NCBI GenBank assembly: GCA_000004985.1 | Contig: GG738875.1 | Reading direction: 5' to 3' (one strand) | DNA length: 64,000 bases | Origin: Naegleria gruberi | Lineage: Eukaryota | Shown here: positions 18,209 to 64,000 of the stretch, piece after piece | How positions within the stretch are numbered: the first letter of the stretch is position 1 | Layout of the letters: each line of letters starts with the position of its first letter | Notes under the pieces: model-generated | What the model was told of the DNA's origin: nothing | Database searches by the model: none | Seen by the model: the letters and a program-made list of their open reading frames with translations, nothing else | Program-made: the position numbers and the translations under genes

Positions 18209-18280
18209 ATCATTTACATTTTGTCATCACTCTTATTGTCACGATTCAAAAAGAACTTGGTTTATTAAGGTTGTATTGAA

Positions 18281-19948: not shown

Positions 19949-19982
19949 ATTTTTTAAAGTTTGATAAAAATTTAAAAAAATA

Positions 19983-21386
19983 ATGCAAGACAATAATTTA
20001 TTGTTTTCTGGTAATAATTCTAGCAGAAAACATGCTTCTATTAAATCACAGAGTGAAATATCCTATTCACAGAGGAAAAATAATCGGATTGACTTGCAAA
20101 AACAAGCACATAAACAAAAGAGAAATCAATTATTGGAGCAATTAAAAAGAAGAAAGGTTTCCGACACTGTAAATGATGATGCCACCCAAGGAAGTGATTA
20201 TGTATATAATATTGGAGTATTTTGCAATGTTTTACTTTCACAAGAGTCTTCAATTCCTCAAAAAATCAATGCAATGAAACAATCGAGAATTATCTTGTCA
20301 AAATGTGATCCCGATACTTTGACAAATATTTTGGAAAAGAATGATCAATTTATTAATCTATTACATCAATATTTAACTTGTAAATATTCCGAGTTGCAGT
20401 TGGAATCTGCATGGTGCATTACAAATATAGCTGCTATGAAGGATGAAAGTGTTTCATTTTGCATTCCTACTCTGATACAATTGATTTCAAATTCATTCTT
20501 GGATGTGGTATTACAAGAACAGTGTATATGGGCTCTTGGAAATATTTCTCTGGGATTTTATAATAATACTCCTCTATCGACTGTTATTATACAGAATGGT
20601 GCTATTCAATATCTGTCTAATACTATCAGAACATGTAGAGCCAAAGAAATTCTCAAAACAACTTTATGGTGCGTATCGAATATTATTAGAAACGAGATTT
20701 TACATATGAAACACAATACACCAGAACATAATCAGCAAATATTTGGATGTCTTGGTCAACTGTATGAACCAATAATTTACCAATTACTGAAAAGAAATTT
20801 GAGTGATGATGGAAACATTTCAGATTTGTTATATGTGTTAAGCTATTTAACTGCTTATCCTCTCACTGACATGAGCAACTCTACAAATTTTGTTCAAATA
20901 TTTATCAAATATTTAACCCCACAAAAACAAGAATTTATAACACCAATTATACGGATTATTGGAAATATATTTTGCTCTTACAACTTATTTTCAGCATTGG
21001 ATCAGAACTTATCTTTAGAATTAATGAACTTGTTGTCTAACATTCCAGATAAAAACAAGGAATGGTGCTACATGATGGGAAATATATCTTCGTATGAGGA
21101 AATCAATGAGATTCTCATTCAACAATATCACCTTCTTAATATTGTAATAGATACTCTCAAAATAGCCATCAATTCTGATATTTCGAACAATAGCGAATTG
21201 GTGCGTGAGACTGTCTATACTATAATCAACCTGACAACAGCTAATCATAACAAATACCTAACTAAGGAAATATTGGAACTGATTCAACGAGTAGCTCAAA
21301 CCTATACATTTGACGAGAATGAAAATAATCAACAATTCAAAATGGTTCTTACACAATTCTTCGACTATGCTTCCAGATTACAATAA
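19983..21386 (+). CDS. Divergent importin-alpha (karyopherin-alpha)-like ARM-repeat protein with IBB-like N-terminal motif
   Basis: Basic IBB-like segment (QRKNNRIDLQKQAHKQKRNQLLEQLKRRKV). ARM repeats with the importin-alpha hallmark W-x-x-x-N motifs (ESAWCITNIAA…, CIWALGNISLG…, LWCVSNIIRNE). 467 aa, shorter than canonical importin-alpha. Confidence 0.55.
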   Translation: MQDNNLLFSGNNSSRKHASIKSQSEISYSQRKNNRIDLQKQAHKQKRNQLLEQLKRRKVSDTVNDDATQGSDYVYNIGVFCNVLLSQESSIPQKINAMKQSRIILSKCDPDTLTNILEKNDQFINLLHQYLTCKYSELQLESAWCITNIAAMKDESVSFCIPTLIQLISNSFLDVVLQEQCIWALGNISLGFYNNTPLSTVIIQNGAIQYLSNTIRTCRAKEILKTTLWCVSNIIRNEILHMKHNTPEHNQQIFGCLGQLYEPIIYQLLKRNLSDDGNISDLLYVLSYLTAYPLTDMSNSTNFVQIFIKYLTPQKQEFITPIIRIIGNIFCSYNLFSALDQNLSLELMNLLSNIPDKNKEWCYMMGNISSYEEINEILIQQYHLLNIVIDTLKIAINSDISNNSELVRETVYTIINLTTANHNKYLTKEILELIQRVAQTYTFDENENNQQFKMVLTQFFDYASRLQ

Positions 21387-26512: not shown

Positions 26513-27501
26513 TTTTTAATTTTGTTATTTATATATTGCTGTGATAATGATGATGATGACTTGTTTTTGAAACACACAGTTTATCTTCTATGGAATGTTG
26601 AGTTAAAAAAGTTGATGTTTTTTTTGTTTTGTGGAAAATGGGTTTTCTTTCCATGAAAAGTTAGCTGTTTGAAAGTTTAAAGAACGAAATTGGCGGGTAA
26701 GGATTGAGGGGAACATGTCCGAATACAAATTCCCTTCTTTCTCATTCACCACCAGTTAATTTCCTTTCCACTTTGGCAATTAGATTATGACAACTTCTTG
26801 AGTTCTAAACTACTTATATACCATTTATTGGGTTGTCACTGTTATTCTTAAACCCTAGTTATTTGATTGTTTAACTCACGGGCTGCAAATAATGAAAGAA
26901 ATCAATTTATTGCTATTGGAATGAAGACCTCTCGTTGAGTTTTGAGATATCTTCCAATCGAAAAGACAAGCGAGTCCAACATTAGAGCAATTTATTCTAA
27001 ATTGAAAATTTCTAAAAATTGTTTCTATCCTAATTTGTATTTGCATAGAAATACTTCAAAAGAAATGCAATTTTTGATAACGACAATGTAATAATTAGCA
27101 GAGCCATTAGATAAGGTACTTTATAGAAGGGAATATTCAAACTATTCGCAGCCATTATTGAGCGGAATTAATCAGACACTGATAGAGAGTTTACAATGAT
27201 AATCCTGGTGAAGGATCGTCATCATGTGCTCCGTCCTTGCTTGTCGGAGTTGGTTCACCACCATATTAAAAAAAAATAAATTCATCCTCCAGAGAGAGAT
27301 ATTGGGAAGATACTTATTTTCTGTTGATCAAAGGTTTTTCAAAGAGGTCTTTTCAAATTTTGGATTATTTGTTATCATCATCATCATATATTAAATTTTA
27401 AAAATTGCTTTTAAAAGTTTCATAGCAATTATCAAGAGCTCCTAAAACTTACGCTATATAATTGCTACTAACGAATTAATTATTACACCAATGTGTATGA
27501 A

Positions 27502-32889: not shown

Positions 32890-35800
32890 TTACTGCGTGC
32901 TGCCGAGAAGGGCAACACCTCTCAACTTCCACTTTGATTTATCTTCCAAACAATTAAGTTCAACATTGAAGATAAAGGTCAAGTCACTACGATTCTTATT
33001 TCTATACACTGGGCATGTGTAAGAGTTCTTCTTCTTTTCTTTTTCCTTATTCTTATCATTAGCAGCAGCAACATTTGAATCCTTAGCAAAGGCAGAAATG
33101 TGAATAACAGGTAATTTGCAAGTGAGGATTTTTGGTAGAGATTCAGTGAGTCTTGCTGAAGCCTTATCCCAACCAGCACCTTCCAAAGATAAACCATGGA
33201 TGTAAACACCTTCACTTGGAGGTTCAATTACATCTTTTTCTTCCATCTTGGTAACTTCAGTCTTGAGTACGACATCATCAAGAGCCCAACCTCTGGCTCT
33301 AGCTACTTCTTGTTGTACAGCTGTCAAGAAACCTTGTGGATTGTAGAATCCTGTTAATTTGAATGAGTTTGGTCTTCCTTCAGTGAGCCACTTGAATAAT
33401 TGGTCATGTCTGGTATCAAGTTCATTGAACCACAAACCAATAGTTTGGGACTCCCAAGAGAATTTCTTCCAAATATCTGGAACTCTACCATCGTAAATAT
33501 TATTCAAAATATCAGATAAACCAGCACTCATGATGATAGCACCATCAATGGCCAGCTTTAAATTGGTAAGATCGGCTCTTACCATACCAATAAGCTTTTG
33601 CAATCTATCAATTTCTTGACTAAGGAAAACGTTCAATGAATTTCTATCAAAACCACCTTGCTTCTTAATTTCAGAATCAACCATATCACGTTTGAAATCT
33701 GGTGGAAGTCCCTTCAAAAATTCATCAGCCTTCTTGAAAACGTTATCTTCTCTTGTTTCTCCGGCGCCACCAGCACTTTCCTTTGGTTGAACATCGAGGA
33801 TTGTTGACAATACTGACTTTGATTCATCAGTTCTGTAGTTAATATCAGCATTAGGGTGCAAGCCAAATACTTCAGGGTTATCAATTTGAGGAATTTGCTT
33901 TTCAATAAATTCGACAAATTGTTCCTTATCTACTTCAGTGATAACTTTTTCAGCACTAACGAAAGGAATTGTGTAACCATCATAAAATTTAAATTCAACC
34001 TTTGCAACATCAGGAGATAACCACTTTTCACCATAGGTCTTGAATAGTTGTCTGTCTCTTTCGTCAGTAATCTTACCACCATAGTGTACATCGCAAATCA
34101 TGTATCTAATAGTTGGCCAACTGATGGATCCCTTCTTGATATCATCACCTATTGAAGCAAAGTGATTTTGCATGAACATTAAGGAAGCACTCAAGTCAGC
34201 AAAGTTGAATTCATAAGGAATATTCCATCCCAAGTAACCAAACTTCTTTCTTTCAGAAACAACAGAGCTCAAGAAACACATTGTGTAAATGAGTGGTTTC
34301 CATTCTGGTCTCTTTGATGCATCTAACATATCTTGTGTGACCCATTCAAAGGCGTTCTTCATACCTGCCTTCACACCAACATCGCCTTCAAGAGTAAGCT
34401 TAATAGATGTTTGAAGTAAGCCAATTGGGAATTTTGGATGAGGTTCGCTAGTAACCCAAATTCTAAAGTCTGGATGTATATTTTCAGCATTCTTAATCAT
34501 ATCTTCAATAAGACTGATAAATTTCAAACCCAAGTGACAGTTTTGTAATAATACCCAACTACCAGTGGAGAAACCAGTTTGAATATATTCTGTAGCTCTT
34601 GGTTCCTGCCCTTGACCCATAGAAATGGCTAACACATCCTTCTTGTGGTGTCTGGCCAAGCCTTCAATTGCTGAAGTTGGATCAGAACCAGGACTCAACA
34701 AACAAACAAATGGCGTCTTGTTATCACTTTCCTTCCAGACGTTATCCAAGTTGATAGGTACAACGTCTAAGTACTTTTGGCCAAGTGCTGATCTAATATA
34801 TTGCATAGCAGCAAGGATGGTTCTGTCTTCTCTCAATGAACGAATAAGTAACAATTTTTCAAAATCTGTCAGGTTACTATATTCTGGGACCTTTGTTTCT
34901 TCAGGCTTTTCTTCGTCATAGAACTTCTTCCATAACTTGTCATTCTTGTGCATTTTTTCTGGCAATTGTTTGAATGTTTCAATAGAGAACAAGCTCATTA
35001 CATTCAACCAGTTAACATCAGGTAACCAGTCAACCTTTTGTCTAACTTTAGACAAGTCAAGCAAAGAACCTCCTCTTAATAGAGTACTGAATTGTTCAAA
35101 GTCTAATTTTCCTTCTCTTAATTGAATCTTACAAGTGAGCAATAGTAAGAATAAGAACTTGTGTCTCTTGAAAAGACCTCTGCTTGTGTATCTGTAAATA
35201 ATGAAGGTACATGATTCCTTAATATTAATAATTCTTTGAGAGGCAACAGGAGCAGGAGCTGCAGTCTTAATACCTCTATCAAAGAGAATCAAGAATTGAT
35301 TCAATGAAGTTTGGTACATAGGATTGACCAATGACATTTCAACAATCAAGAAATAGAGAACAGAACCTCTGATAGCAACATCTTCATATTCCATTCTAGC
35401 CTTATTGATTCTTTCCTCAGTATCTTTTGCATTTACAAGCTTTTCCTTAATTTCAGCTGCTTGCTTCTTTGTTTGGGCTAATACAGCAATCAATACTTCA
35501 TCTTCAATAAGAGACTTGTCTGATTCTTCAGAAAGTTTTGACAACAATTGGGCTTCAAGATCAGCCATGACTTGTTGGTTACCGTTAATATCTTCCAAAA
35601 TCTTTTCTCTTTGTTCTTCCAGTTCAGCCTTTTCTTGTTGGATAACATAACCCAAAAGCTGTTGTTCCAACCCTTTCATGGTAACTGTAAAGTCAATAAT
35701 GTTGCACTTAGCAAACAACTCAGGAGTAAAGTTAGGATTGGCAATCTTTGTTGTCAAGAACAACTTGAATCCATCATCGTAATCAATAGCCTTATCTTGA

Positions 35801-38800
35801 ATGATGATTTGCTTTTGTTTACCAGTCATAACGAATGACTTTTCCAATAGAGGATCAAGCATAGGATCAATTTCTTCTTCCACATTTTCAATGATAAGTG
35901 GACGACCATTTGAAATGGCATCTTCAAGTTGATTACGGAAGTACTTGTCAGTCAATCTAACAATTAAGAGACCTTGTTTTTCAAACTTCTTCTTCAACCA
36001 GGCTAAACCTTGTCCTTGAGGATCAACCAACAAAGCCCACTTAGAGGACTTTGTCAACATGATAGCATTTTGAATTGAGTGGGAGTCAGTTGGTAAGCCT
36101 TCAAGATTCCATGCACCTATTTGAGCTTCAGTAGTCAACAAATCTACAATCTTATCCTTCTTTTCATTTTTATCTTCTTCTGTTACAGGAATATCTTTTT
36201 CTTTACAATCAGCATAGAAACATTTGGAGAGCAAAATCTTACGGAATTCACTGTTAAAAGGTCCACAGTAAGAAATAAAAGCACAAGCGAGTGCAACATC
36301 ACCAGTTAACTTTCTCAATCTATCAGAGAATTGTTTGGATTGAATACCCCATCTTTCACTTTCTCCGCCAAGAGATGAAATAAGACTGGTTGCTTGTTCC
36401 ATGAACTTTCTTGTCTTTTCAGCATCTTCTTCGAGAAGTTCCTTTTTTCTTGTTTCTTCTTCGAAAACTCTTTGCTTTTCTTCAAATTCAGCGATGACCT
36501 TATTCAATTCTTCCATCTTCTTATTCAGTTGTGCAGTAGCGATAGCAAGAGTTTCTTCAGCTTCTCTAAGTCTTTCTCTCTTTGGTCTAACTTCCTTTTC
36601 TACGTTGTGATATTCAGCCATAGCACGAACCCAAGTACACAAATTTGAAGCAGCTGAACTTGATGATTTGATGATATCATATGTAAAGAATGAGTAATTA
36701 ATATAAGGCATCAACAATTCTACAGTTTCATCTGTAATTTCATCTTGCTTAAATTGTTGGATACCTTTCAAGAAACCAGCGTCAGCAGTCATCTTTTGAG
36801 CGTTAGAATATGAGTCTTCAATTATGGCACCCAATTTTTCGTCATTAATAATTTTAACATCATTGATTGGGAATTGTCTCAAGATGAGAACACCATCAAA
36901 TACGGTTTTAATGGCTTGAGCAGGAACTGTATAGGCCTTGACAGTTTGAATGTCTTTTGGTTGAATTGAAGCAACAGCCTTTTCAGCTCTTTCCAGGGCT
37001 GGTTTAGCTTTTTCTAAATCTGCTAAAGCTTCCTTCTTTTGAATTTCAACCAAGTTATGCTCCTTTTCAATAATATCCTTTTCTTTTTCTACTTCAGTCT
37101 TCTTAGCCAATGTCTTGGTCTTGCTTTCGGAAACTTCTTTCATGATCTCTTCAGCTTTGAGTTTGGCTTCATCCAATTTCTTTTCCTTAATCTTCAACTC
37201 AATTTGAAGCTTTTCAACATCTTCCTTTGCTTCATGAAGTTTAGAGAGACCCATAGCAACGTTCTTAGCTTCTTTATCAATTTCAGCATACTTAGCTCTG
37301 TATACGTCCTTATACAACTGTATAAATGATAGGTAAGACTTTGGAGTTGTGTGGACTGCTCTTCTGAATCTTTGGAAGTATTCAGAGGCGACTTCATTAA
37401 TCTTATTGTGTACTGCAGCCATGTGTTTAATCAAACTCTTCTTGACTTCAGGTGTACAATGAATTTCATAATCATCCAAGAATTTCTTGGCAACACTTGT
37501 CAAAGCTTCCTCTGGCCATGGGAAGAACCAATTTACAGAACATCCACTGATAAGAGCAGGGAACTTCAAAGCTCTGCTTCTGAACTTCTCACTAACTGGT
37601 GAGAAGCACAATACAATATGCAAATTATCTCTAACTCTGTTGATAAAGAATCTGTACAAATTATCATAAGTATCATTTCTTCCAATAGTAGTTGGGTATA
37701 AACGTTTAGCAACCATTCTCAAATCGTTAATGATAGAATCAATTTCTTCTTTCATGAATAGACCAGAGACTTCTCCTGAAGATAAGATACTATTAATATA
37801 TTCAAGGAAAGTTTCATCTTTGATTTCGTTATCTGTGAAAATGAAACTGACTGGTTTTCCTTGCAAACCAGCAAGCTTGAACATTTCTCTTAAATCTTCG
37901 AAGAAGTTGTTAGCGTTATAAGTCTTGTGAAGAACAATTTGCTTGATTTCATAGCCTGCAATAAATGAAGAAAGTCTTGTTAATGATTGTTTTCCTGAAC
38001 CACCAACACCGACTAATAAAGCATTACCTCTTGGCATACTCAGAATTCTTGAAATACGAACCAAGTGTTTGAGAGCCATGTCGAAGAGAACCAAGTCCAA
38101 TTTTTTAATATGCTTTCTTTCACCATTGTAATTCTTCATGAATCCTTCAACTCTTTGTCTGAGAGATTCAATTGACTCAATAGGTTCATAAATCTTTGGA
38201 GCTTCTTCAACTACTTCATCAGTGTCCTCATCAACAATAGGATCTCTCAAGAAATTGACAAAGTAATAATTATCAACCTTAGCTAATTCTCTGCCAAAGT
38301 ACTTTTCAGCTGTCTTAACAATGGAATCATCAAACCAAATCTTGTCTTTGACATCATTCAATCTGTCTGAGAAAACTCTACCACATTCGTGTTTCCACAA
38401 TCCCATCAAAATTTGTGGAGTTTTAACAACATCTGAAGGACAGTTCATTAAACCTTGATAGACTCTTGATAAATCTCTCAAGTTGAAAATGTAGTGGAAC
38501 TTCTTTGGAGTTGGAAGCATCTTATCTTGAGTCATTCTCCAGAATTCAATAGTAGCTGGAGTAATGCTTGATGCAAGCTTTACCATTTCATCAGAGAATC
38601 TTGTAGTATTATATCTACCTCTGATGACAGAACCGAAGATTTGGTCAATAGATGCTACAGTAGGAAGTGTAATATTCAAAATAGAGAAGTGTCTCTTCAA
38701 TCTTTCAGGAATATCATTCTTACCACCACCTGGATGGGACATGGCAGCAATAAATTGCAAATCTTCAATATGAATAAATTCACCAATCTTAGTTAAACTG

Positions 38801-41800
38801 TAGAATCCCTTTTCTTCTACAAGTTGTCTTACAATTTCGTTTGTAACTTGATCTCCCCAAGCATTGATTTCTGGCATGTTAATATCGTCAACAAAGACTA
38901 CCATCTTCTTGTTTTGAGGTGGTCCGTAAACTCTGAATCTCTTTTCAATATTGTCTTGAATAGTGAATTGGAAGATGTTGTGTGTTGTTGCAGAAGAAAA
39001 GTTAATCTTCTTATACATCATTGTTTCAGGGTCCAAATTGTACAAGTAGTTTTCAATTGTAACAGTCTTTGCTGTACCAGAACCACCTGTGAACAAGATA
39101 TCCCTCTTTTGTTTAGCCAAGAGTTCAATGATATAGGTTGTTCTTACAGAATCTGAAGTAGGAACGTACAAGGTACTGAATTCAAGAACATCATTTTCAG
39201 GATAATTCCAAGCAGGAATAACAGCCTTCCAATTCTTCCACTTCTTAGATGCAGGATCAACGAAAAAGTCATAAATATTTTCATCTTCACCCATATCAGT
39301 TGGGAAAATGGTTGCCTTGGATTTGATATAATCACTGAATTGTTTTCTCGCCTTTGATTCCAACAAACCACCAATAGACCAAGCAAAGGAATACCAGAAA
39401 AGCATTTCAATATGTTGCTTGTCTAATTTGATTTCTCCCTTATTAGAGTGTTCTTGAATCAACTGTGTAATAATACTGAAACAGGTCATAACTTGATTGA
39501 CTCTAACAACATTCATCACAGACTTAAGCTCTTTCTTAATATAATCAACACCATTGTCAATATGAGTTGTAAATAATGTTCTGACAATAGTTGTTTCTTC
39601 TTCCTTGAACGGAGCGACTGGTACAGAGTCACCAGTTGAAATAGTTTCATTAACTCTTCCTGCGTATCCTTTCAATCTTGATTCTAAAACAGGAGCCCAA
39701 CCAAGAACGGATTCAGAAATATAAATTTGACCAGCTCTAGAAACAGTAGCAGGAGAGGCATTATTCAAGTTTTCGACTTCGAAACACATCTTAACATCTG
39801 GGGACATTGCTAATCTATCACCGTTAGCAAGAGTCAATAACTTGTTATCATCCAAAACAGTGTTCAAATTTTCAATCCAAATAGCATCAACAGGACCATC
39901 ACAATTGATCCAAATGTGTTGCTTTCTTTGTTTGTTTGCTTGTTTCCACAAGTCAGAGAAAATACCGTCAGTCCATTCGTTTGCTACTACATCAAGTTTA
40001 CCAAACATTTGATTAGCTGTAATGGCCTTTGGATTCATTCTAAGTTGTTTATATGTTTTCTCTGGATTGAGAACACTGAGTGTCTTCAATAATATAGAAT
40101 AACAAGCACTTTTACCTGAACTGGCAGCACCGACCACCATGATACCGTGACGAACCAAACAAGTTTCATATAATTGGATCACTTTTTCCACCCAAGGTCC
40201 ATGATTTTCAAAACCATTTTGTTTGATTTGTTGTTCAAGTTGCTTTTCAAGTTCTGGAAAACGTCTCTTTTCTGCAACAATTGAAGGGAACAAGTCTTCT
40301 ACAAGAGAATTGAACAAGCTAACGTCTTCAGCGACCAATTTAGAAGTGTTCATGTCTCTGAGAGTTCTCATGAGCAAGAAGTGTTCTGATTTACCAATGT
40401 TAGCTCTCATTGTTTCACCAGCAGTTCTCAAAACTGACAAAATATTTCTGAGACCAAAATCGTAGTGAGCTTGTTTTGAAAGCTGTTGTTCACAAAGTCT
40501 GTACAAGACATCGAACTTCTTTGATAATGGTTCGTTCTTCTTGTAACCAGCAGCAGCTAACTTGACTCTAATAATAATTCTTCTGTCAGGAACCATCATA
40601 GTGACACCTCTAAACAAAACCTTCAAGTTTTCTGGAAGTTCTTGACGTCCTTGATAACCAGGATTCATAGTAATAAACATGGCTGTCTTGTCATTCAATT
40701 TACATGGTTTACCATCTGTAAAAACGAATTTCTTTTTACCATCTCTCAAGGTTGACAGAATGGATTGGACTTGTTGAGCAACGACAGACAACACTTCAAG
40801 TTCAATACGATTGAATTCGTCGAAACAACCCCAAGAACCACTTTGAGCCAAACCTCTAAAGATTTTACCCATAGCTCTATAATCCATTTGATCTGAACAG
40901 TTAAAGACAACTACATATTTACCAAGAGTTCTACCCAAATCTTTAACAGTTTCTGTTTTACCTGTACCGGCTGGACCAGCTGGAGCACCACCTAACTTCA
41001 AACCGATGGCTTGAGAGAGGGTAAGATAACATCTGTCGGTCAAAGGTGTAATGACCAGTCTTTCCTTACAACCCAAATATTCATAACAATATTCTTGATC
41101 GATATCTGCAATAGAAACAATACAAGTATCTTGATCTGGTTTCCAATAGAATCTGGCTTGTTTTTGCCAATCAAAATTAATAGTGTCCTTAACTCTATCT
41201 CTTAAAAGTTCACCGAAAACGTCACGTTGGTGAACTTGAATTGTAATAAGAGTTTCAACCTTTGTTCTTTCCAAAGGAGTCAATTCTCTTGTTGTTAAGG
41301 TTGTAAGTTCATCAAGAATAGTTGAAATTTTAGCATGGGTATTAGACATTGCTCTCTTATCAGACTTGGCTGAATTCAAAGCATTTTCACATTGTACTGT
41401 CCACACGAATTGAATACCAAGAATAGTAACTTGAGCAGGATACTTTTCAATGAAACTAGTGAGTGACATTGTGTTACATTCTTCAGCAGCATCTCTGACA
41501 ATGAAACGAAGAGTTCTTTGCATTTCTTCTTCGAGTTTTTGTAACCAATCTTCAACGTTACCTGCAGCTACAACAGCATCATTAAGAGGAACAATTTCTC
41601 CTTCAGGGGATTGCATACTCAAAATCTTGTTGTCTTGTCTAGCATCGAAAGTAACCTTTGAAATAGAGTCGAAAATTGTAATCAAAGCAGGTTGAATAGC
41701 ATGAGGATCAGATGATTGAGACAAGATTTCCAACAAAGCAGTGTCAGAGTTGAAATAGAATCTTGGGAAAATATCTCTCTTTTGTTCCAAATAACCAGCC

Positions 41801-44800
41801 AAAGCCTTTTGACATTCTTCCAAACTGATTTTAAGAGCTGGCAACATCTTCAACATTTCATTATCAAAGCAGAAACGAATAACGTTTGGAGTAGCAACAG
41901 CCTTTTGTAAAATCTTGACCCAGTTCTTATCAATGTGACTGAATTTCTTGTCTTCATGTGGCAATTGTCTCTTAATATCACCACTTGCAAATACAGGCTC
42001 AAGATAAAGCCATTGAGCTTGAACTTGTCTCCAAGCTTGAATATTTTCAGTTACAGATGTAAGCTTTTGCATCCATCCAGAGGCTAATTCTCTGAATGGT
42101 TCCAAATACTTTGAACCCATGATACCACCCAAGTTCATTTGGGCTTCTTCAAGTTGTTCCATCAATTCTTGAGTTTCAGCACCCTTCAAGATAATAGGAC
42201 CACGGTGTTTGTATTCAGCGAAAGACAATTCTCTATCCTTCCATTCTTCAGTAAGCTTTTTCAACTTGTCTTCAATTTCTAATTCCTTACGAGCTGAGTT
42301 ACAAACATCTTCGACTTCTTCCTTACATGCAAGTAAATTAGCTTCCAAAATGTCTTTAAGTTTAAACACATCGTCTTCCTTCTTAAATTGCTTCTTTGTG
42401 AGGGCTTCCAAACGTTCCCAATGTCTTTCTCTCATAGATGGATTCTTAAGTTGATCCAACAATGGTTGTAATTCTAAGAAATCTTCAATAGTTTGTCTCA
42501 AATTTTCATAAGCCTCAATGCCTTTTGCAGCTTTCTTTAAAGAATTACATTTAGTAGCAAACTTGTTGACTTCATCAGTAATGGCTTGGAAATCAAGTTC
42601 AGACCACAATAACTCTCCATAACTACCAACTTGTTTCTTAACCTTAATGTATAAATCGTACAAGGTGTCGTATAACTTTAACATCTTTTTCATCTTTGCA
42701 AGATCTGGGTATTCTTGCATTGGCAATCCGAATAATTTTTCACCTTCTCTGTACACTTCATATTTTCTTTCTCTTTCAGCATACAGTCTTTGGAATTTGT
42801 TCAGTCTTTCTCTAGCTTCTTCAGGTGCAATATCAGGTACTGCAGGCCCATTAAGTGTAAAATCTTTACAGAATTGCTCGACATCGGTTTTAAAGAGCTT
42901 TACCTCAGAAATTAATCTTGTCTTGAACCCACTTTGAACCTTAGAAATAGTTTCGTTAACTTTACTGGCCAATCTAGTCAATTTCTCCCACTTGAAAGCC
43001 AGATCGTAAACTTCATCAATTTCTTCCTTAGGAACATTTACAGAGTACTTTTTCAAAATAGAATATCTGTCAGCAATTTTAGAGAAATCATATTCAATCA
43101 TTGCTTCCCTAGATCTAATATCCATAACAGTACCCATGACAAATCTCAAGTCTTCAAGGTTTGCAATTTCTTGAGATAATCTCTTTGTAGATTCATCCAT
43201 CATTGTCAAATAGTTGTTCAATTCTTCCTTTGCACTTTCGTGAAGGTTATTGGCATATTGAACTTTCCATTGAATAACTAGCTGGAGTATGGAATTCTTC
43301 AATCCTTCTGCATCCAAAAAGAATGGACCCACAATACTTGATGTCTCCATTTGGCCAATCTCATTTTCAAGAACTGTGTATTTGTTCAACTCCTTTTCAA
43401 AATCATCAAGAGTTGGCTTCTTATCAACACATTTATCAACAAACTTTTTGTAGGCTGTTTGTTTGTCTTCCTTCCAGAGATAGCTGTACTTTTCGTATTT
43501 AGCCATAAATTGCTTAATTTCTTTTTGTAATAAAGCACAAGCTCCACTAGATGTCATTACCAGTCTAATAACATCACAGTCTCTGGATACTTCTCTGTTG
43601 AAGTGAATCTCTGGTTTGCACCTCCATGGTTGGATTGCCTTTGGAGATCCTAAAACAGATTGAACAACTCTGTCAATAGACTCTTGAATTTCTTCAAGGT
43701 TAGGTTTGAGAATTACATCAGGAGCTGCAAGTTCAAAACCAATTTTGAAAATTGGATCACCATGTGTGTCCTTTCTTGTTCTGCTTCTAAAGTAATGCAA
43801 AGACTTTACGACAGAATTCAGTAAGTTTTCTAAAATTGTTCTATGGTAAAATTCTTTAAGTCGAGTCAACAAATCTGGAGTAATTGTTAGTTTTGTTTCC
43901 TCGAATGGAAAACCAGAAATTACTTCTAAAATATCCTCTACGGCTCTTTCTATTTCAATACTCTTATTGTTGAGCTGTTCAGATAATTCTTTTGAGTATT
44001 TGTCTTGTGTATCTACAATTTGTTCAAGAGTGGAATCTTCTCTTTCAGGGAGCAAGAAAAATCCAGTATTTGATATATCCTTCAAATTTTTGTCGATTCT
44101 TCCATCGATAATATCATTAACCTTAAGTAATACATCTTCTAACTTTTCCAGTGTCTTGTGAATTCTCTTTAAATAAACTGAAATATTCATAGAAGTCCAT
44201 GAAAGAGTTGTAACACCAGGATCAATTTTCTTCTCAAGCTCGTCAATATGTGGTTCAAGTAATGGCTTTACATCATCTTTAACCATAGAAAGAATTCTTG
44301 CTCTTTCCTTCAAAACAAAGGATAACTCGTTGTAATATCCTTTGTATTTTTGTTCTTGAAGGAGAACAGTTTTACCCACATCTGGGATTTCAACTCCAAG
44401 TCTCATTAACCATTTGGCTTCTCTAATGAGTTGAATTATTTCAATATCAAAGTTAACAAAGAGTCTATCTTCAACCTTAATAATCAAAGTTGCCAATAAA
44501 CCGTCCTTTGCCTTTTCAACATATTTCTTCCAAGCTTCCAACCATGAGGTTTCAAACTTGATTAAACCCATCAAAACCTTGTTGTATGTTTTGATAATCT
44601 TCTTTGATTCCTTACTTTGCATAATAGTTGGGATTTGTTGGAATTTAGTCATTGGCTCCTCTATTCTTCTCATAAGTTGTCTACACCAAATAACTTTTCC
44701 GGCAACGGGTGGGGCATTTCTTACCAATGGTGGTTTAACTTTGAATTTTTCATATAGCTTTTGAATGTTATCAAGTTGGAATCCATAGTTGTGGAAAATT

Positions 44801-46392
44801 ACTGTATACTTATTTTCCAATTCAGTTTGAAGAGATTCTCTTTTCAGAATTGATTTAAACTTTTTAAGAACTTCTAAAGCTTGTTCACTGCTTGAAATAT
44901 TTTCAAACCATGTATTGATGAAAACCTGTAAGTATTGTTCAAGGTGAACAACTTTCTTGTTAAAAGCCATATATTCCTTATCGAAAGCATTTCTTTGATA
45001 ATCAAGAAGATTGGATGATTTTCTCTTAATTTCATCAACATATCCGAAAAATTGAGAAATAAGTTCATCCATACCTTCAATGTTATTACTCTTTAGTGAA
45101 TGGAATTGATCAATTGTCAAAAACAATTCAATAAGGGTTTCTATTCTTCTACAGAATAATCTCAATTTACCAAAGATTTTCAATTCATCAAAATCAAATT
45201 CTCTTCCCTTAGTTTGTTGAAGCTTAGACTTTTCAGCAAAATAACATCTTTCATATTCTTCTTTCAAGTCAATACAAGTCTTCAAACCTGATAATAATTC
45301 AGTAGTGTCTTGATCCCAAAGACGTCCTCTGTTCTCAATGTTATATTTACAGTTTTGAATGATTTGAAGACTGATCATAACCAATAATTTCTCCATCTTT
45401 TCCTTTGAACTATAATATTTAGCTATATTATACATCATACTAATATTCTTAATTAAACTTGGTAAGATTTCAATAATATGGGATGGAAGGGAGGAATACA
45501 AAGGCTCAATATATTTTTCTAATGATGTTAAATATTTAACATTGTCCTTTGCTTCGTTAATGGCATCTGTTAATGCAATATCACAATCGGCCCATTCTTG
45601 TGGCATTGAATACAGTTTCAAAGCGGAAAGAATTGCCTTATATTCTTCTCTCTTTAATTGTTCCATTACACTGTTCAATTTTAAGTATCTATTCTTCCAG
45701 TGTTCAATTTCTGCTGTTGGACCTAGTTCGTTATCTGTTAACTTATTGTCTTCAATCACTCTTTGAATCTCTTGAACCCATATCTTTACCAAATTATCGT
45801 AATAGTTCATCAGATTAATGTTTTCTTTAGCCTCCATAATTGCTGTTGGATTGTTTGGGATAAGTCTTTCTTGTGGAGGTCTTGTGAGTGTAATTGTTGG
45901 TGATTTTGATGTAAGAGCTTCTCCTAGTTTATCCGACATTCTCTTTGTTGTTTGTAAGAACTCTTTTGCTTGTTCTGAAGATGATTTACCCCAATCCATT
46001 TCCTCTGCACTGAACAGTGGAATGTAAACTTGGCCAAAGACTGTGTGTAAATTGTCTATCACATTTCCTTCAATAACACCACAAACAAGTGAATCAACAA
46101 TTTGAGCTTCTTTTGCAGGTACTGCTGCATTATTTCTTCTAAGAATATACAATACTTTTGGTGCCTTGTAAGGAAGATCGCTTGTTGTAGTTTTTAAAGA
46201 GAGGATGAATTCCCTGTTTTTTTCCACTACCGAAATCAAAAGAACATGGCATTGTTCATCTCCGTTCATAAAAGTATCGATACTCTTTTCATTTTCCTCT
46301 AGAAATTGTTGTATTTGAAGGGCCTTAACCTGAGGGAAGGACTCTTCAACTCTATCAGAAACGTATTTAGCTCGAGTATCCCTTATGACCAT
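32890..46392 (-). CDS. Axonemal outer-arm dynein heavy chain (about 4500 aa), intronless
   Basis: Single 13.5-kb ORF. AAA1 P-loop region [58 protein letters not shown] is of the outer-arm type (NCSDQMD…[17 protein letters not shown]). Further AAA2-AAA4 P-loops (GAASSGKS…, GGSGTAKT…, GVGGSGKQS). Coiled-coil stalk and C-terminal domain. The ORF-track start 46476 is TTG; first ATG is at complement(46390..46392), preceded by an A-rich leader. Confidence 0.95.
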   Translation of the reverse strand: [4500 protein letters not shown]

Positions 46393-46454
46393 TGTTTTAT
46401 TTTTTTTTAAATTGTAGTTTTTTCTTGTAGGTAATACAACGAAGAATTGGCTGT

Positions 46455-46465
46455 TTTGGCGCGCA
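46455..46465. promoter_or_regulatory. E2F-like TTTTGGCGCGC motif 63 bp upstream of the outer-arm dynein heavy chain ATG
   Basis: Sequence ctgTTTTGGCGCGCaatt matches the E2F consensus TTTSSCGC. Similar copies lie upstream of the second dynein gene (62348..62356) and the importin-alpha-like gene (19938..19948). Motif match only, no functional evidence. Confidence 0.25.
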
Positions 46466-46811: not shown

Positions 46812-48473
46812 ATGAGCATAACGAGTGATGTGATTGATGCTGAATCTCTCTTATCGGATGAAGTCTTCGAGAATGAAACAATGAAAAGGGAAATAGAAGA
46901 GGGCAGATTAATTCCTGACCCTCTTAATGCTTCTCTAATTTCTGACAATCTTATGGACCTTAATAATACTAACAGCACAATTAGAAGACAACACCGTTCA
47001 TCATCAAGACAAAAATCCTTCAATTCTTCAATTAACCGATCAAGTATATCAAGAGCAGCAACACCTTCTATACACTCATTTCCGAGTAGATTTTCTGTTG
47101 AGAGTCCTGTTATTTCGTTTTCAAAAGGAGAACGTAAATACACCTATCTAAATCAAAGAGTTGACACTCCTGGTCCAATATATGAATCCATTCCAAAATC
47201 TGTGTCATCAAGCTTCTCCTTCCCAAAAGGAAAGAGATTTGTTGAAGAAGAATTAAAAATACTCCAACAAGCTCAAAAACCTCCTCCAACTGCCTATAAT
47301 CCAAAAGATCACATCAAGTACAGAACTGATCCATCTTTCAGTTTTGGTTCGAGAACTCCGACCCAAGAATACAGATCAGATTCACCAGGACCAATTTACA
47401 ATCCAACTGATGTTCCTTCAAAGAGATTTTCAAAATCTTCAACAACATTTGGTGCTGGAGAAAGATCTCTTAAAATGAGTGATGGGCGAAGTGGGTCTCC
47501 TCCACCAGGAGCTTATAATCCTTCCTTAATGGATTCTAAAAGGAATATTTCTTTTTCAATTTCAAAGAAAGAAGGTAGGTTTTAAATGAGGTTTAAAACA
47601 AAACATTTTTTAGAAAATTATATTTACTTTGGAGATAAATTAAGTGCAAATAAGGAGGTGAGTATTAATTGGAATTTATTTATTAAAGAAAATGAATAGT
47701 CAATGAGAGTACCTGGACCAGTTTATGATCCATCCTATCGATTGTCAATTACATCATCACCTTCATTCTCTTTTGGAAGAAGAACACCACTGCCCAGTGA
47801 TCAAGTACTTCTTGAACATCCTGGGTTAACAGATTACAACAAACAATTCGTTTCTCATTCTTTTTCCCTTCAGGGCAAAGATAGAGAAGTTGACCCAAAT
47901 ATTACATATAATGCTCCAAGAGCAAGATTTTTGGGAGATCAATTTTTGAACGAGAACCTGGGAAGAGCATCTCCAGGACCAAAGTATAATATAACTCAAA
48001 GTTTTGTCATTCCATCCAAGAGACATGTTGAGGAAGATCACATCCTGACATTCAAAGCTAAAGAAAAGAAAAAGAAGGACAAACCGATTCCTACACAAGT
48101 TTATCCTGGTTATAGTATTTCCAAGGCTTCTGCTCAAATTACTGAAAGTCCTGGGTGTGTTTACACTCCAAAAACAGATTTCTCGTCACGAGTCCCAAGA
48201 GTATGCAGCCCTGTAATGAAAGTAGCAAAACCAGTGGATAACAGAAAAGCTCCTGAAATTTATCCTCAATTAAGAAATCCAAATCTTACAGCACTTTCAA
48301 ATGTCCCAACTTCAACAGTACCAAAGTTCATAAGAACTGGAAATACTGTTGGTGTTAGAACTCCTCCTCTGATTTCCCATTCTCCTGGTCCAGTTTATAA
48401 AGTTGACTGGGAATCATTGGAAAAGAATGCAAAGAAAGGTTTACCTGGAGGTAAGTTTGGAGGCCTTTCGTAA
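46812..48473 (+). CDS. ODF3/SHIPPO-like sperm-tail PG-rich repeat (STPGR) protein; proposed join(46812..47574,47614..47657,47700..48473) with 44-nt micro-exon
   Basis: More than ten degenerate SHIPPO/STPGR repeats of the form [ST]PGP.Y.P (TPGPIYES, SPGPIYNP, SPPPGAYNP, VPGPVYDP, SPGPKYNI, SPGCVYTP, SPGPVYKV). The two halves are in the same frame, separated by 117 nt. The ORF-track segments are joined in frame only through a 44-nt exon (47614..47657), flanked by GTAGGT…TTTTAG and GTGAGT…GAATAG introns. A possible further GTAAGT donor at 48451 is unresolved. Confidence 0.6.
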
Positions 48474-48623: not shown

Positions 48624-49858
48624 TTACCAGATCACACCCTTTCCAAAAATTACAATAAGGCCAACAACAAGAACAGTGAGCAATATTAAACCAAGAATGA
48701 TCCACATCATTTTTGATCCTGTTTTACGGAGCTTGTTACTCTCTGTTGATCATTCCAATAAAAAATTAAACTTGAACGCAAAAATAAACTTACCTTTGAG
48801 ACTTTCCACACCTCTTTCCACATTGTCCTTTGATGTAATGACATTGGTGTGAATAGTGTCCAACATTGGATCTTGTTCATCTACAAGACTAGAAAAAGAA
48901 TGGAACAAGTGATTCAATTCATGATATTCACTTTGATAAGTTTTCAAATCTTCATACTCTTCCAATGCAATTTTCATTTCTACATTCAAAGTGCTATCTT
49001 GCCAAGAAACAAGAGCATTTTCTTGTAATTCTTGATCAACAGTAGTTTGCTTTTGTTGAGTAGTGTGCAATAATGGTTGATCTTCAGATTGAATTTCTTC
49101 TTCCTCATCAAAGTGATCCATTGGTGTTTGGTGATGGGCAGCAAATTGTTCTTGTTTTTGTTTAGTTTGTTGAGCAATCCATTCCTTATCACGTCTAATA
49201 ACATCCTTAAGAACAGTGATAGTTTTAGTAAGATCATTCTTTACACGATTATATTTAACCATGGTTTCATGTTGAGTATTCATTGAGGATGAATTAGTTT
49301 CAGTGGAAGAACTCAATCCAGATTCCATTAATAATCTGCTTTCATTACCAATCTTTGACCCAATTCTATTGGAAATCTTTTTCAAATCATTAACTTCTGA
49401 TGTGCACCATTGACGAATTGATCTATTAAATTATTTCAATCATTAATATTCATCATTATTTCAATTAGAATATTGAAAAATTCCATATTTCCTTACCTAA
49501 TCTTTTTAGTAATATCATTTCCACCAACACGAAGAGAAACATCACCATGATTAAAAGATGAGTCCGATCCTGAATTATTGTATGAAGAAATGGCCACTTG
49601 TTGTGCTCTCTGATTCGACAATTGTTTGTATTGTTCCACTTGTTTAGACAAGTTAGTAACTCTCAGAACAAACTCCTCAACCGAGTCATTATTTGAACGT
49701 TGGAAGGAGTTGAAGTTTTCATTTTCCTTGCTATTGTTTGTTCCAAGGTTATTGCTGCCTGTTGTGGTGGCGTTTCTTTTTTGTTGATTCAAAGTTTTGG
49801 CGCGTTGATTTGTACTTGCTCCAACACTAGGAACATTTCCCCACGATAAAGAAGACAT
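48624..49858 (-). CDS. Syntaxin-type Q-SNARE with C-terminal TM anchor; complement(join(48624..48742,48794..49422,49497..49858))
   Basis: SNARE motif …YHELNHLFHSFSSLVDEQDPMLDTIHTNVITSKDNVERGVESLK with central Q. 74-nt GTAAGG…TAATAG intron and 51-nt GTAAGT…CAACAG intron. The last 119-nt exon encodes …KMMWIILGLILLTVLVVGLIVIFGKGVIW (TM anchor), stop TAA at 48624..48626. ORF-track pieces 48750..49385 and 49493..49858 are exons 2 and 1. Confidence 0.8.
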
Positions 49859-50577
49859 GTTGTAGTTGTGGTTGTTCTTTTCCTATGCACGGATAATGAT
49901 GATCAAACAATTTCAAAAAGGTGAGATGATGAAGAAACTGTGTCAGTGATCCAAACCGCCAATTTTTTTTTATGAAATGTTGGTGCTGTCAAACGTCATG
50001 TCTGGTGACTGGCCTTAAAAAACAAGAATGCAAATAAGAGAAGTGGGCAAATGAAGAAATGATTTGAATGAGGAAAACTAAAGGAAAACCCTTTTATAAA
50101 ATGATATCATTGATGATAATATTTCGATTAACCCTCTTTCTTAATTAATAAACTTTCCATCCAGAATTTTCAATAATAGAACTAATAAGTTCCACAGCCT
50201 AATGGCAGAAAAGTTACTTCACAATTCCTATAAAGATTACAACAAAATCGGATCGTTGTTCACATATTTAAAACTCAAAATATCTTATCTAATTAACTGT
50301 GATTGAGTGAAATCAATTCGTATTAATTAAATAAAAATAAATAATTAAAAATGTAAAATATTTAATTAAAATTGTTATTGTTGCTAAATTAAAGTTATTA
50401 TTAATAATACGAAAGTTGTCATCAAGCTCATTAAATTTTAGAATTTAAATTGTGACTTTTTATTTCCCTTTGATAAGGCACTAATAATTAGAGTGTATCC
50501 CTTAGAGAGGTACTATTGAAAACTAAAAGGACATGGTTCAGAGTTGTTTGAAATAAATCTCTCAACTAACTATAAAT

Positions 50578-59602: not shown

Positions 59603-62344
59603 ATGCCTATGAAAAAGACAAACCACAGGCTGAAGTGGAGTGTGGGAAAATATATTATATTCATAACAATATTAATAGTAGCTTTTTCTATTATAATATC
59701 ACATCAAGAACAAGTTAATCAAAAGAAAAAATCTAATAATCAAAATTCGGAAGAGGAAGAACCAAAGTTTATAATTTTGAAAGATGGTGATGAATCTGAG
59801 CTTGAAAACCTTCCTGAAGAGTTTAAACAAAAAATCAAGGAAGCTTTATTGAAAGTTAAGAGTAATATTAATTTTGAACAAGCTCCCCCAGAATCAAATC
59901 CTTTAAATAATAATATGCCTGATCAACAACAGACTAAAACTTCCCAAACAACCAAACCAACACCTCAAGTTGAAGAGACATTGGATACATCAATGTTAAG
60001 TGATATTTCTATTCCTTTGGATGAGATAACAATTCCAACAGAATATTCCTCAACATTGGATGAAGAGTTCACTAGAATTAAGAGAATGAAAGAATTAAAA
60101 CTTGTAACAAGAAGAAAATTCATGTCTAAAAAACTCAATGATTTGAGAAAACAACAAGAAAATGAAATTGATGGAAAGAAGGATTCTACAGAAAAATTAT
60201 TAGAAGCAAGAATGATTTTGGATCCCGATCTTCCAGAGTATGACAAAGAAGCTGTTGAAAAGGCAATTGGAATTTATCTTTCTGTTGTTAAAGAAGATCC
60301 AACAAACCCACTTGTATTGTATAATTTAGGAACAGTATATAAGGTAAGATTTTCTGAGAATATTAATGACTAATTGTTTAATTAGAGTGAAAAATTTGGT
60401 GTTAGAGACTTTTCCAAGAGTAAAATGTACTACATTTTGGCAGCTTATTTAGGTAGTCAAATGTCACAATTCGAGGTTGCTCTATTGTATAATAATAACT
60501 TGATTTCAAGCAAGGATTTAGAAAATGTGAAAAGTTTAATGATTGAGATATTTGGACCAGTTGAAACAATGAAAAAGCAAGTCAAACTAATTTATGAGAA
60601 GATTCCAAAATCTATTGAAAATCCTGAAACATTATCTTTGTTGAATCTTTTCTATAGCTCTTTAGGAGGAAATACTGGAGCAAATATTGCTTTGGGATAT
60701 AGACATATGTTCGGACATGGCGTACCAAAATCTTGTAAAACAGCTAGCTATTATTATTCGAAAGCAGCTTCTGATGTTATTGTCGAGTTTGAGGATAGCA
60801 GAATGCCTCTTATTGATCATGTAAGACTTAATGATGAGAGTGCTATTCAAAATAAGCAATCACAAGAGGATATTATGGAATATTACCAATATTCTGCTAG
60901 TAAGGGATCATCTTCATCGATGCTTATTTATGGTTATGCTAATTTATATGGTATAAGAGGTGTCGAGCAAAATGGAGAAGTTGCTAGAAGATTATTTGAA
61001 CAAGCTGCTGAGGCAGGAGAACACGAGGCTTTTGGCGCTCTTGGTAATATGTTCCTCAAGGGTGCTGAAGGTATTCCAAGAAATAATGAGACAGCTTTCA
61101 AGTACTTTAAGAAGGGAGCAGACAAAAAAGATCCATCCTCATTAAATGGGCTTGGAAAGATGTACCTTGAGGGATCAAATGATGAACAAGGAAATATCAT
61201 TCTTGAAAAGAATTTTGAATTGGCAGCTGGATATTTCAATAAGAGTGCATCATTGGGCAACTCTGAAGCTCATTATAATTTGGGTCTTTTATATTTGGAT
61301 GGTAAGGGTGTAAAGAAATCATTTAAACAAGCAATGCAACATTTTGCGATTTCAGCTCAACATGGTCAAGTTCTTGCCAAATATCAACTTGCCAATATGT
61401 ATCTTCATGGATTGGGAACTAATCCAAATTGTGAAATTGCTGTTAAATTCTTAAAATCTGTTGTTGAGAAGGCCTCATGGACTTCAGTAATGGAGAGTGC
61501 TTTTGAAAAGTTTGTATCAGGAGAGGATCAACATACTGCTCTTCTACTTTACCAACATGCTGCAGAAATGGGTATTGAAATAGCACAAGCTAACATTGCT
61601 TTCATGTATGACAGAGGATATGGATTTGAGGAAATTTCCAGTGGATTATCTGAAGAGGAAAGTGAATTGTTAAAATTCAAGGGAGCTATCAAATGGTATC
61701 AACAAGCAGCTGAACAAGGTAATGTTGATGCGTATGTCAAAGTTGGGGATTATTACTATTATGGTTCATCTGCTTTATCATCTTCAAACTCTTCTGTTGG
61801 AAGTTTAGAACAATCATACGAAAAGAGTATTTATTTCTATAGAAGAGCTAAGGAATTGAACAATGCTCAAGCAATGTTTAACTTGGGTTATATGCATGAA
61901 CATGGAAAGGGACTTCCACAAGATTTCCATTTGGCTAAAAGATATTACGACATGGCATCTGATGCTGATCCAGTAGCTTATGTTCCAGTTATTTTGGCCT
62001 TGGGTAAATTATATGGTCATTGGGGATTTTATTTAGTTAAAGATTATGTAACAAATATTTTCAATGAAATGCCAAGTAGTGAAATAGATGAAACCTCAAA
62101 CTCTGATATTTCAACTTGGTTGGTCAATCTCATAATTGAACATGAGGATTACTTTTTGGCTATTCTAATTGGTGGTCTAGCCCTACTTATTTTTGTCAGA
62201 CATGTAGTGAATAGTCAAGCTAATGCAAGACCAAGAAGACGTAGAGTAGTCACTACCACTGAAAACACTCAACAAGAAGATAACGTTAGAAACCAACAAC
62301 CAGAAGAGCAAGAAGAACACAATCAGCACGAACACCAAGAATAA
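59603..62344 (+). CDS. SEL1-repeat protein, SEL1L/Hrd3-like ERAD component with C-terminal TM anchor; join(59603..60343,60386..62344), 42-nt intron
   Basis: N-terminal signal/anchor (YIIFITILIVAFSIIIS). About 10 Sel1 repeats (…GANIALGYRHMFGHGVPKS…, …ALGNMFLKGAEGIPRN…, …GLGKMYLEGSND…, …NLGLLYLDGKGVKKS…, …LANMYLHGLGTNPN…, …NLGYMHEHGKGLPQD…). C-terminal TM (LAILIGGLALLIFV) followed by a basic/acidic tail. GTAAGA donor at 60344 and TTAATTAG acceptor ending 60385. Confidence 0.8.
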
Positions 62345-62347
62345 ATA

Positions 62348-62356
62348 TTTGGCGCC
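62348..62356. promoter_or_regulatory. E2F-like TTTGGCGCC motif in the 50-bp spacer between the SEL1L-like stop and the second dynein ATG
   Basis: atatTTGGCGCCtttttt, 40 bp upstream of ATG 62396. Motif match only. Confidence 0.25.
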
Positions 62357-62395
62357 TTTTTTAAACTACAATACAACACCACAAACGCAAAAAAA

Positions 62396-64000
62396 ATGAG
62401 AGAAGATACAACTGAGAATTACAGTGAGGATGCCTTTATTGGTCATACATCGCTGTCAAATCTTCATCTTGTACTTCAAAATATATTTCTTCCATTCTTA
62501 TCAGATCAAAACGGACAAGAGGATGAAAATAATAATACAAACAATCAAAAATATGGTGAAACCTTACAAAATATACATACCCTAAATTCTGATTTCATAT
62601 CACATTTGAAAAAGTTTAGTGGACAAGTTGGATATACAGTTAAACAACTCTCTGGAGAAGTATTGATTGATTTACCGGAAGTGCATTTGGATGATCCCAA
62701 GACAGCAGCAGAGGATGAACATGTAAGTTTTTTATTTGATACTTGATGAGCTAATTATTAATACAATTAGATTGTTCAAAAATTGGAAGCATGCCTTAGT
62801 AGTTGGACTCAATCTATTAACTCCCTTTTAGAAAAGGTTGTGAATCAAGAAAGAGAAGGAGAGGTAAGCATTATTTGAAATTAAAATTCTAAAAAAATGA
62901 TTTAAAAAGGGACCTCTCTCCGAAATTGATTATTGGAGAACAAGACACGCTTCACTAGGAACAATTTGGGAATCACTAAATAGTAAAACTGTAAAGAATG
63001 CTATAGAAGTGCTCCGAATTTATGATGCACAATTATTACCTGGTTTTGATGACCAATTTCAAGAATTAACTAAATTATACATGGAAGCAAAGGAAAATGT
63101 AAAGTTTTTACAAACTCTTGAACGTCACTTTAAAAACATTTCACAAGCAAGAGGTTCATTAACACCAATTTCCGATACACTTCCTTCTATGATGAATGCC
63201 ATCAGAATGGTTTGGGTAATTAGTAGATATTATAATACAGACAAGAGAATGATACCTCTTATGGAATTAATTGCTCAAGAAATTTGCTTGAAAGTATCAC
63301 AATATATTAACCTAGAGACTAGTTTAGATGTAAATAATATTTTTAATAATCCGTACAAGTTAGCAGAAAGACTTCAAGAGGGAGCTGAAGTTTTACAAAA
63401 ATGGAAAACTGTATGTTTAAAAATTTAAATTTATTTATTAATATTGCTCTAGACCTACTTCCATGTAAGAGAAAAAATAGAAAATACAAGTAAGGATGAA
63501 CGTTGGCATTTTGAAAAGGACTCACTTTTTGAACAATCTGATTACATGTCAGAAAGATGTTACGAGTTGAAAGAATTAGCAATTTTTATTGGAAGATATA
63601 AATCATTTTTAGGTCCAGAATTGAGAAGTATGTTTTTAATTCTATCATTTTTTTAAATTTTATTTTAATCCATTAGATATTACTGGTGAAAGTGGTATTG
63701 ATGAAATTTTGGATAGATTGAAAGATCTTGTTACACCATTCCAACAAAATGCTAATTTAATTTTTAATAGAAATGCACAAATGAAGTGGATTGAAATATT
63801 TAAACAATTTAAAGAAAATTCAGAGGAAATTAAAATACAAACCAACTCATTTATTGATAAGAGTTTCAAGAAATTGAGATCAGCAGAGGGTGCCTTTAGG
63901 CTTTTACAAGATGTTAGAAAGATTCACAGCCAAGACAAAGACTCTATAAATCAAAAGATGATGCTCAAGTCGATAGATATTCTTGAAAGATATGGAGAAG
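62396..64000 (+). CDS. Second dynein heavy chain gene, N-terminal (DHC_N1) region, 3'-truncated by window edge; join(62396..62722,62771..62863,62910..63410,63453..63627,63677..>64000)
   Basis: Spliced product …GPLSEIDYWRTRHASLGTIWESL…IEVLRIYDAQLLPGFDDQFQELTKLYMEAKENVKFLQTLERHFKNI…MNAIRMVWVISRYYNTDKRMIPLMELIAQEI…TYFHVREKIENTSKDERWHFEKDSLFEQSDYMSERCYEL… is the conserved dynein heavy chain N-terminal region 1. Four introns of 42-49 nt: GTAAGT, GTAAGC, GTATGT, GTATGT donors with TTAG/AAAG/CTAG/TTAG acceptors. All frames are consistent. ATG at 62396 after an A-rich leader. Confidence 0.8.

Follow-up and report, generated by a model that had tools for sequence, protein, structure and literature searches.

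In vertebrates, E2F acts on centriole-biogenesis genes and downstream regulators, and the axonemal dyneins are driven by RFX/FOXJ1. CDE/CHR tandem elements, which are bound by DREAM (E2F4-DP-p130 plus MuvB/LIN54), consist of a GC-rich CDE and, ~4 nt further downstream, a TTYGAA-type CHR hexamer. Outside the cell cycle, an E2F-family factor is employed when cells construct basal bodies and cilia, namely E2F4/5 with Multicilin (MCIDAS/GEMC1) in the multiciliated cells of vertebrates and E2F in Stentor; the factor is tied to the cilia and centriole programmes of the former (PMC12183034) and takes part in regeneration of the oral apparatus in the latter (PMC9371601). Among protists, Cryptosporidium parvum carries DTTGSCGCCH and TTTGGCGGGAAV as its most abundant upstream motifs, at about 2,400 genes and without a specific expression pattern (PMC3734150). 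Both C. parvum and Naegleria have compact, AT-rich genomes with short spacers, and the motifs of both were found purely via their over-representation upstream of ATGs.

Naegleria is a classic model of de novo basal-body and flagellum assembly and switches on hundreds of flagellar genes within an hour, yet neither a cis-element nor a transcription factor is known to us for its flagellar programme. Our literature search likewise found no paper on any Naegleria promoter motif. The stretch analysed here, hereafter the window, is 64 kb of N. gruberi DNA with a G+C content of ~33% and densely packed, mostly intron-less genes. Open reading frames and Pfam matches yielded a map of ~34 genes, leaving ~12% of the window (7.66 kb) as intergenic DNA, and products of window ORFs are identical to the N. 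gruberi proteins EFC43189, EFC43190 and EFC43107, all encoded by a single 396-kb scaffold.

The word TTTGGCGC, which is an instance of the canonical E2F consensus TTTSSCGC, as a first-pass annotation of the window had pointed out, occurs in five exact copies (starting at 19940, 46455, 49796, 61031 and 62348) where fewer than one is expected, all five on the plus strand of the window. TTTSSCGC itself has six matches, the five exact copies and one TTTCCCGC, against 0.92 expected, a count reached in none of 100 shuffles. Three of the exact copies are intergenic against an expectation of 0.076, an enrichment of ~40-fold that was matched by none of 1000 dinucleotide shuffles confined to intergenic DNA (Poisson 7e-5), and the annotated prominence of the word in spacer DNA is thereby borne out. 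Intergenic TTGGCGG (3 versus 0.135 expected) and TTGGCG[CG] (6 versus 0.30) are also in excess, and one-mismatch variants of TTTGGCGC are not enriched over the whole window (19 versus 16.2). Chance occurrence is ruled out by shuffles both of the whole window and of the intergenic DNA alone. Nor do the copies represent a dispersed repeat or the remnant of a mobile element. Aligned pairwise, the sequences on either side of the three promoter copies score at shuffle level (z −0.3 to 0.8), and above-shuffle scores were confined to pairs that include the coding copy at 61031; the five copies, with their unrelated flanks, do not form a repeat family. In our view intergenic TTTGGCGC is a real and probably functional E2F-type cis-element, previously undescribed in Naegleria.

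The three intergenic copies occupy the proximal promoters of two axonemal dynein heavy-chain genes and of an importin-alpha-like armadillo-repeat gene, ARM467 (Table 1), in agreement with the first-pass annotation. All six sites that it quoted are present, with coordinates that differ by at most 1 bp. Its positioning of the motif 35-65 bp upstream of start codons describes the three exact sites, which lie 43, 48 and 63-70 bp from the first ATGs of their genes, and fails for the weaker copies at 104, 178 and ~300-420 bp. It overlooked the two exact copies in predicted coding sequence (49796 and 61031), and it was silent on strand: the dynein-1 site runs opposite to its gene, an inversion that arises because dynein-1 is encoded on the minus strand.

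Table 1. Positions of the E2F-type sites, neighbouring genes and accompanying words in the window.
Feature	Position	Strand	Remarks
E2F-type site TTTTGGCGCCA (TTTTGGCGCCATTTT of the first-pass annotation starts at 19939)	19939..19949	+	43 bp upstream of ARM467 ATG (19983)
ARM467, importin-alpha-like armadillo-repeat gene	19983..21386	+	467 aa; EFC43107
E2F-type site TTTTGGCGCGC (plus-strand letters)	46454..46464	.	63-70 bp upstream of dynein-1 ATG
Degenerate second copy ATTGGCTG	46446..46453	.	adjoins main dynein-1 site; aligns with TTTGGCGG in L006
Dynein-1, outer-arm dynein heavy chain (gamma/DNAH5 class)	32890..46392	-	single 4500-codon ORF; first ATG 46392
SHIPPO/ODF3-like repeat gene	46812..48473	+	divergent from dynein-1
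E2F-type site TTTGGCGCC	62348..62356	+	48 bp upstream of dynein-2 ATG (62396), inside 51-bp spacer
Dynein-2, inner-arm I1/f-alpha (DNAH10 class) heavy chain, 5' part	62396..64000	+	introns; extends beyond window
ACTACAAT (dynein-1 sense strand)	46411..46418	-	26 bp upstream of ATG; within block CTACAATTTAAAAAAAAATA
ACTACAATACAAC, i.e. ACTACAAT overlapping AATACAAC (dynein-2 sense strand)	62365..62377	+	31 bp upstream of ATG
Intergenic AATACAAC copies	16630, 18270-18277, 19900-19907, 46433-46440, 59398-59405, 62370-62377
Weaker copy TTTGGCGGGTTT	16393..16404	-	718-bp AOAH/USP14 divergent spacer; ~300 bp from one flanking ATG and ~420 bp from the other
Weaker copy ATTGGCGGG	26689..26697	+	989-bp spacer; 178 bp upstream of hydrolase gene ATG
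Weaker copy ATTGGCGG	49955..49962	-	104 bp upstream of SNARE-like gene ATG (49858)
Exact TTTGGCGC	49796..49803	+	predicted first exon of SNARE-like gene, 55 bp downstream of ATG
Exact TTTGGCGC	61031..61038	+	within Sel1-repeat coding sequence; probably incidental

The identities of the three genes were as first annotated. The outer-arm dynein belongs to the gamma/DNAH5 class, the second dynein is an inner-arm I1/f-alpha heavy chain of the DNAH10 class, and the third gene is an importin-alpha-like ARM protein; the AOAH and USP14 labels were also corroborated by the domain sets present. ARM467 is divergent and only distantly related to importin alpha, and its close relatives in our homolog search came only from heteroloboseans (N. 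lovaniensis, N. fowleri and one environmental relative). The spacer that holds the dynein-1 site is common to the divergently transcribed SHIPPO-repeat gene, which begins ~357 bp on the other side. The NCBI model for that gene, EFC43112 (519 aa), seems to fuse the SHIPPO-repeat ORF with a 256-aa ORF (46812-47585 and 47703-48473) over a 117-bp gap; the model and the 256-aa ORF fall into one 90%-identity cluster, and the SHIPPO ortholog of Willaertia magna has an annotated length of 461 aa. No flagellar assignment emerged from PDB searches with an EF-hand protein, the 256-aa ORF or a 442-aa ORF.

Comparison with described elements brings out both likenesses and differences. The Naegleria sites present the same 8-mer as animal and plant E2F/DP sites (1CF7), flanked by a run of T and built on a near-palindromic core, GGCGCC or GCGCGC, and they share with those sites closeness to the gene start and the use of either orientation. 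The targets differ, however, being axonemal dyneins and an importin-alpha-like gene rather than replication or S-phase genes; none of the three is a classical S-phase E2F target, and the window is without obvious replication genes. The variants TTTGGCGCC and TTTGGCGGG hardly differ from the motifs of Cryptosporidium, the closest precedent among protists, but the Naegleria site is rare, gene-specific and placed before axonemal dyneins. Finally, TTTAAA follows GGCGCC by 3-4 nt at two of the three promoters (19949 and 62357), which resembles a CDE with a CHR-like hexamer behind it and has to be read against a high TTTAAA background; the dynein-1 site differs in having no such arrangement.

The proteins expected to read such a site are encoded by N. 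gruberi. The first-pass annotation had suggested searching the genome for E2F/DP family members, and NgruE2F, NgruDP, NgruDEL and NgruRB indeed appear among the source data that accompany Medina et al. 2016 (PMC4862756). Exact look-up confirmed NgruE2F (XP_002668864, NAEGRDRAFT_54558) and NgruDP (XP_002674586, NAEGRDRAFT_50903) as N. gruberi proteins, and Pfam assigns E2F_TDP (winged helix) and E2F_CC-MB domains to the former and E2F_TDP and DP domains to the latter. The Naegleria E2F's DNA-binding domain aligns with its human E2F4 counterpart in the crystal structure 1CF7 (E2F4-DP2-DNA), including a 27-residue stretch with a single difference, and E2F4/E2F5 are its closest counterparts among solved structures. 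The RRXYD DNA-contact helix is conserved in N. gruberi E2F/DP, and because this recognition helix is retained, established knowledge of E2F-DNA recognition indicates that the Naegleria heterodimer should prefer TTTSSCGC, the consensus that the three sites carry. Given both motif and proteins, an E2F-type interpretation is reasonable, and we consider it fairly probable that E2F/DP would bind these sites.

The explanation that we favour, with moderate confidence in it as a whole, is that the three intergenic TTTGGCGC(C/G) words are gene-specific sites for the Naegleria E2F-DP heterodimer or its atypical relative DEL. Such sites would occupy the proximal promoters, at 40-70 bp upstream of the ATG and presumably near the transcription start, of a small subset of genes, which in the window would comprise the two axonemal dynein heavy-chain genes and the lineage-restricted importin-alpha-like gene. 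The bound factor might impose E2F-RB-type repression in growing amoebae, followed by release or activation at cell-cycle exit, and the sites could in this way contribute to the induction of axonemal dyneins during amoeba-to-flagellate differentiation.

Conservation was assessed for each of the three promoters and proved patchy. The dynein-1 comparison covered W. magna and L006, a JGI metagenome contig, both of which retain the divergent dynein-SHIPPO pairing. L006 derives from a distant relative, with proteins only 45-48% identical to those of N. gruberi (45% for the SHIPPO ortholog), and the contig stops ~10 bp short of the expected dynein ATG. In local alignment against the dynein-1 upstream region, its first 75 bp scored 54, compared with 23.4 ± 4.4 for shuffles, none of 500 of which reached that score. 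Conserved between the two are the blocks ATTGTAGTTTT (on the sense strand, ACTACAAT) and GTAATACAAC, together with a TTGGC(T/G)G copy and TTTGGCGCG; the last lies at the same distance as the dynein-1 site, and the second copy reads TTTGGCGG. By this alignment, one distant environmental relative has retained the dynein-1 site along with ~75 bp of its surroundings. A 28-codon gene called at L006 1-85 overlaps the conserved promoter block and both E2F-type sites, and this call is almost certainly spurious.

The W. magna dynein-SHIPPO spacer spans only 133 bp. Here the GCGCG half of the dynein-1 site has been deleted and TTTACCGC alone remains nearby, with CTACAATTTA(T)AAAAAAAATA as the conserved remainder of the upstream region. 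The sole GGCGCC of the W. magna locus (L002 9711) was considered as a promoter site and rejected, as tblastn places it within the coding sequence of the SHIPPO ortholog. In the same assembly (GCA_041937235.1, L002 10001-23090), the outer-arm dynein is annotated as four models of 1016, 891, 306 and 1260+ aa versus one ORF in N. gruberi, probably an annotation or assembly artefact.

At the other two promoters, orthologous regions carry altered forms of the site. The ARM467 ortholog of N. lovaniensis (L003) shows TTTG-CT-GCGCC, with a 2-bp insertion inside the motif, the environmental contig L005 shows ATGGCGCGAA, and the N. fowleri ortholog promoter (L004) has no site. Upstream of the dynein-2 ortholog in L007, only TCTCCCGC is found, at -43, and in L024, a further dynein-2 relative, neither a first exon nor an upstream region could be recognised. 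L003, L005 and L007 hold one-mismatch forms only. Taken together, a site with at most one mismatch lies within 120 bp upstream in five of six orthologous promoters versus 7 of 58 controls (Fisher p = 6e-4), where one-mismatch variants arise by chance in ~8-13% of promoters and some of the mismatches fall at core positions. The excess suggests turnover of a site whose function is maintained, for which one-mismatch sites are weak evidence.

A second N. gruberi strain offered a comparison at shorter range. Two contigs of ENA assembly ERZ929261 (L027 and L001; run ERR1078381, labelled 'metagenome') are 99.4-99.7% identical to window positions 37854-50204 and 50368-54605, from which we conclude that the assembly holds a second strain of this species. 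Across the 419-bp dynein-1/SHIPPO spacer the strains, 99.4% identical, differ at ten positions, none within the proximal 85 bp, a distribution that alone is not significant (p = 0.10). Divergence in the spacer, ~2.4%, is clearly above that of the flanking coding sequence.

One alternative, which we regard as possible if unlikely, is that the word is a dedicated cis-element of a flagellar or differentiation regulon, read by a redeployed E2F/DP or by another factor. Both axonemal dynein genes of the window carry the exact site as opposed to one of the 32 other genes (Fisher p = 0.005, computed post hoc with n=2), and the dynein-1 site also faces a SHIPPO/ODF3-like gene of sperm-tail type, the partner retained in W. 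magna and L006. On the sense strand of both dynein promoters, AAACTACAAT stands at -26 and -31. The axonemal dyneins of N. gruberi are differentiation-specific transcripts, with three of four outer-arm and five of six inner-arm dyneins induced (PMC10802493), and Naegleria is without RFX, FOXJ1 and XAP5, so that other cilia-gene factors must exist (2025 review, PMC12183034); the ties of E2F to cilia in vertebrates and Stentor add to the appeal of this reading (PMC12183034, PMC9371601). Against it, ARM467 as third target has no known flagellar role, weaker intergenic copies accompany the AOAH/USP14, hydrolase and SNARE genes, and the site is lost at the W. magna ortholog of dynein-1 and degenerate at the L007 ortholog of dynein-2.

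The stronger proposition, that E2F/DP with RB or DEL directly regulates the Naegleria flagellar programme, a single E2F4/5-like factor repressing axonemal genes in dividing amoebae and releasing or activating at cell-cycle exit, strikes us as rather doubtful. The cilia connection is a hypothesis resting on two genes, and Naegleria further differs from the vertebrate multiciliated programme in lacking RFX and FOXJ1, the link between them being drawn from two promoters only. Were it true, E2F-cilia coupling would be ancient eukaryotic wiring and not an animal invention, and the first cilia-gene transcription factor would be in hand for an organism without RFX, FOXJ1 and XAP5. A canonical E2F site at both dyneins of one 64-kb window provides a concrete and cheaply checkable hypothesis; should the association fail genome-wide, the finding would be an ordinary one of E2F sites in one more protist, much like Cryptosporidium.

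A different reader of GC boxes, such as a CG-1/CAMTA-type protein or one with zinc fingers, or an absence of function altogether, would make the likeness to E2F sites coincidental, an outcome that we judge improbable. In its favour, turnover in orthologous promoters is high, and two exact copies sit in coding DNA. However, neither the intergenic enrichment nor the conserved 75-bp footprint in L006 fits such a coincidence, and the conserved E2F recognition helix leads one to expect the canonical specificity. CAMTA-type factors need a CGCG core (the CGCG box), which is missing from two of the three sites, both TTTGGCGCC.

Very improbable, finally, is that the word serves generally as a proximal or core promoter element, carried by most genes at a fixed distance from the ATG: the narrow band occupied by the three exact sites and the near-ubiquity of E2F-like motifs in C. 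parvum promoters (PMC3734150) speak for it, and the per-promoter census contradicts it within the window. This census, which took 130 bp upstream of each of 34 starts, found the exact word in three of the 34 regions (~9%), and a match to TTTSSCGC with at most one mismatch lies within 120 bp in seven of the 34 window promoters. Of 27 control promoters from related loci, three had a one-mismatch form and none the exact word. Neither 21 kb of N. lovaniensis (L003) nor 18 kb of N. fowleri (L004) contains TTGGCG[CG], and it was not found in the environmental contig L005; over ~46 kb of loci from N. lovaniensis, N. fowleri and environmental heteroloboseans, the L006 dynein-1 spacer is the one promoter region in which it occurs. 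The first-pass view that the word is a proximal promoter element shared across this compact genome is therefore not upheld, and gene-specific E2F-type sites remain the reading that we prefer.

Other words recur beside these candidate E2F sites. The three occurrences of ACTACAAT in the window equal the number expected by chance, and two of them lie upstream of the dynein genes (46411-46418, minus; 62365-62372, plus). The block CTACAATTTAAAAAAAAATA that surrounds the first of these is kept in W. magna (L002 ~9946-9970) and in L006 (~6-16), and CTACAATTTAAAAAAAAATA/ACTACAAT may represent a core-promoter or start-site block. The word AATACAAC is found ten times in the window, six of these in intergenic DNA where ~0.5 would be expected, and each of the three exact E2F-type sites has one copy within 35 bp; GTAATACAAC is also conserved in L006, and AATACAAC may be a further promoter element. 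The sites of ARM467 and dynein-2 (19940-19958 and 62348-62365) have in common the longer word TTTGGCGCC(A)TTTTTTAAA, which may combine an E2F site with a directly adjoining TATA-like box or else form a CDE/CHR-like pair, its significance being uncertain because TTTAAA is very common in this DNA.

Three spacers (15983-16700, 26513-27501 and 49859-50577) are unusually long at 720-990 bp and contain one TTGGCGG each. Window scans detected no ORF, tRNA or Rfam match in them, and they may conceal unannotated exons or non-coding transcripts. The most over-represented words of the spacers are CAT/GAT and CAA trinucleotide runs (GATGATGA, CAACAAC), seen for example upstream of 26512 (minus) and 27502 (plus). 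Immediately 5' of nearly every ATG stands a very regular run of A (AAAAA-ATG).
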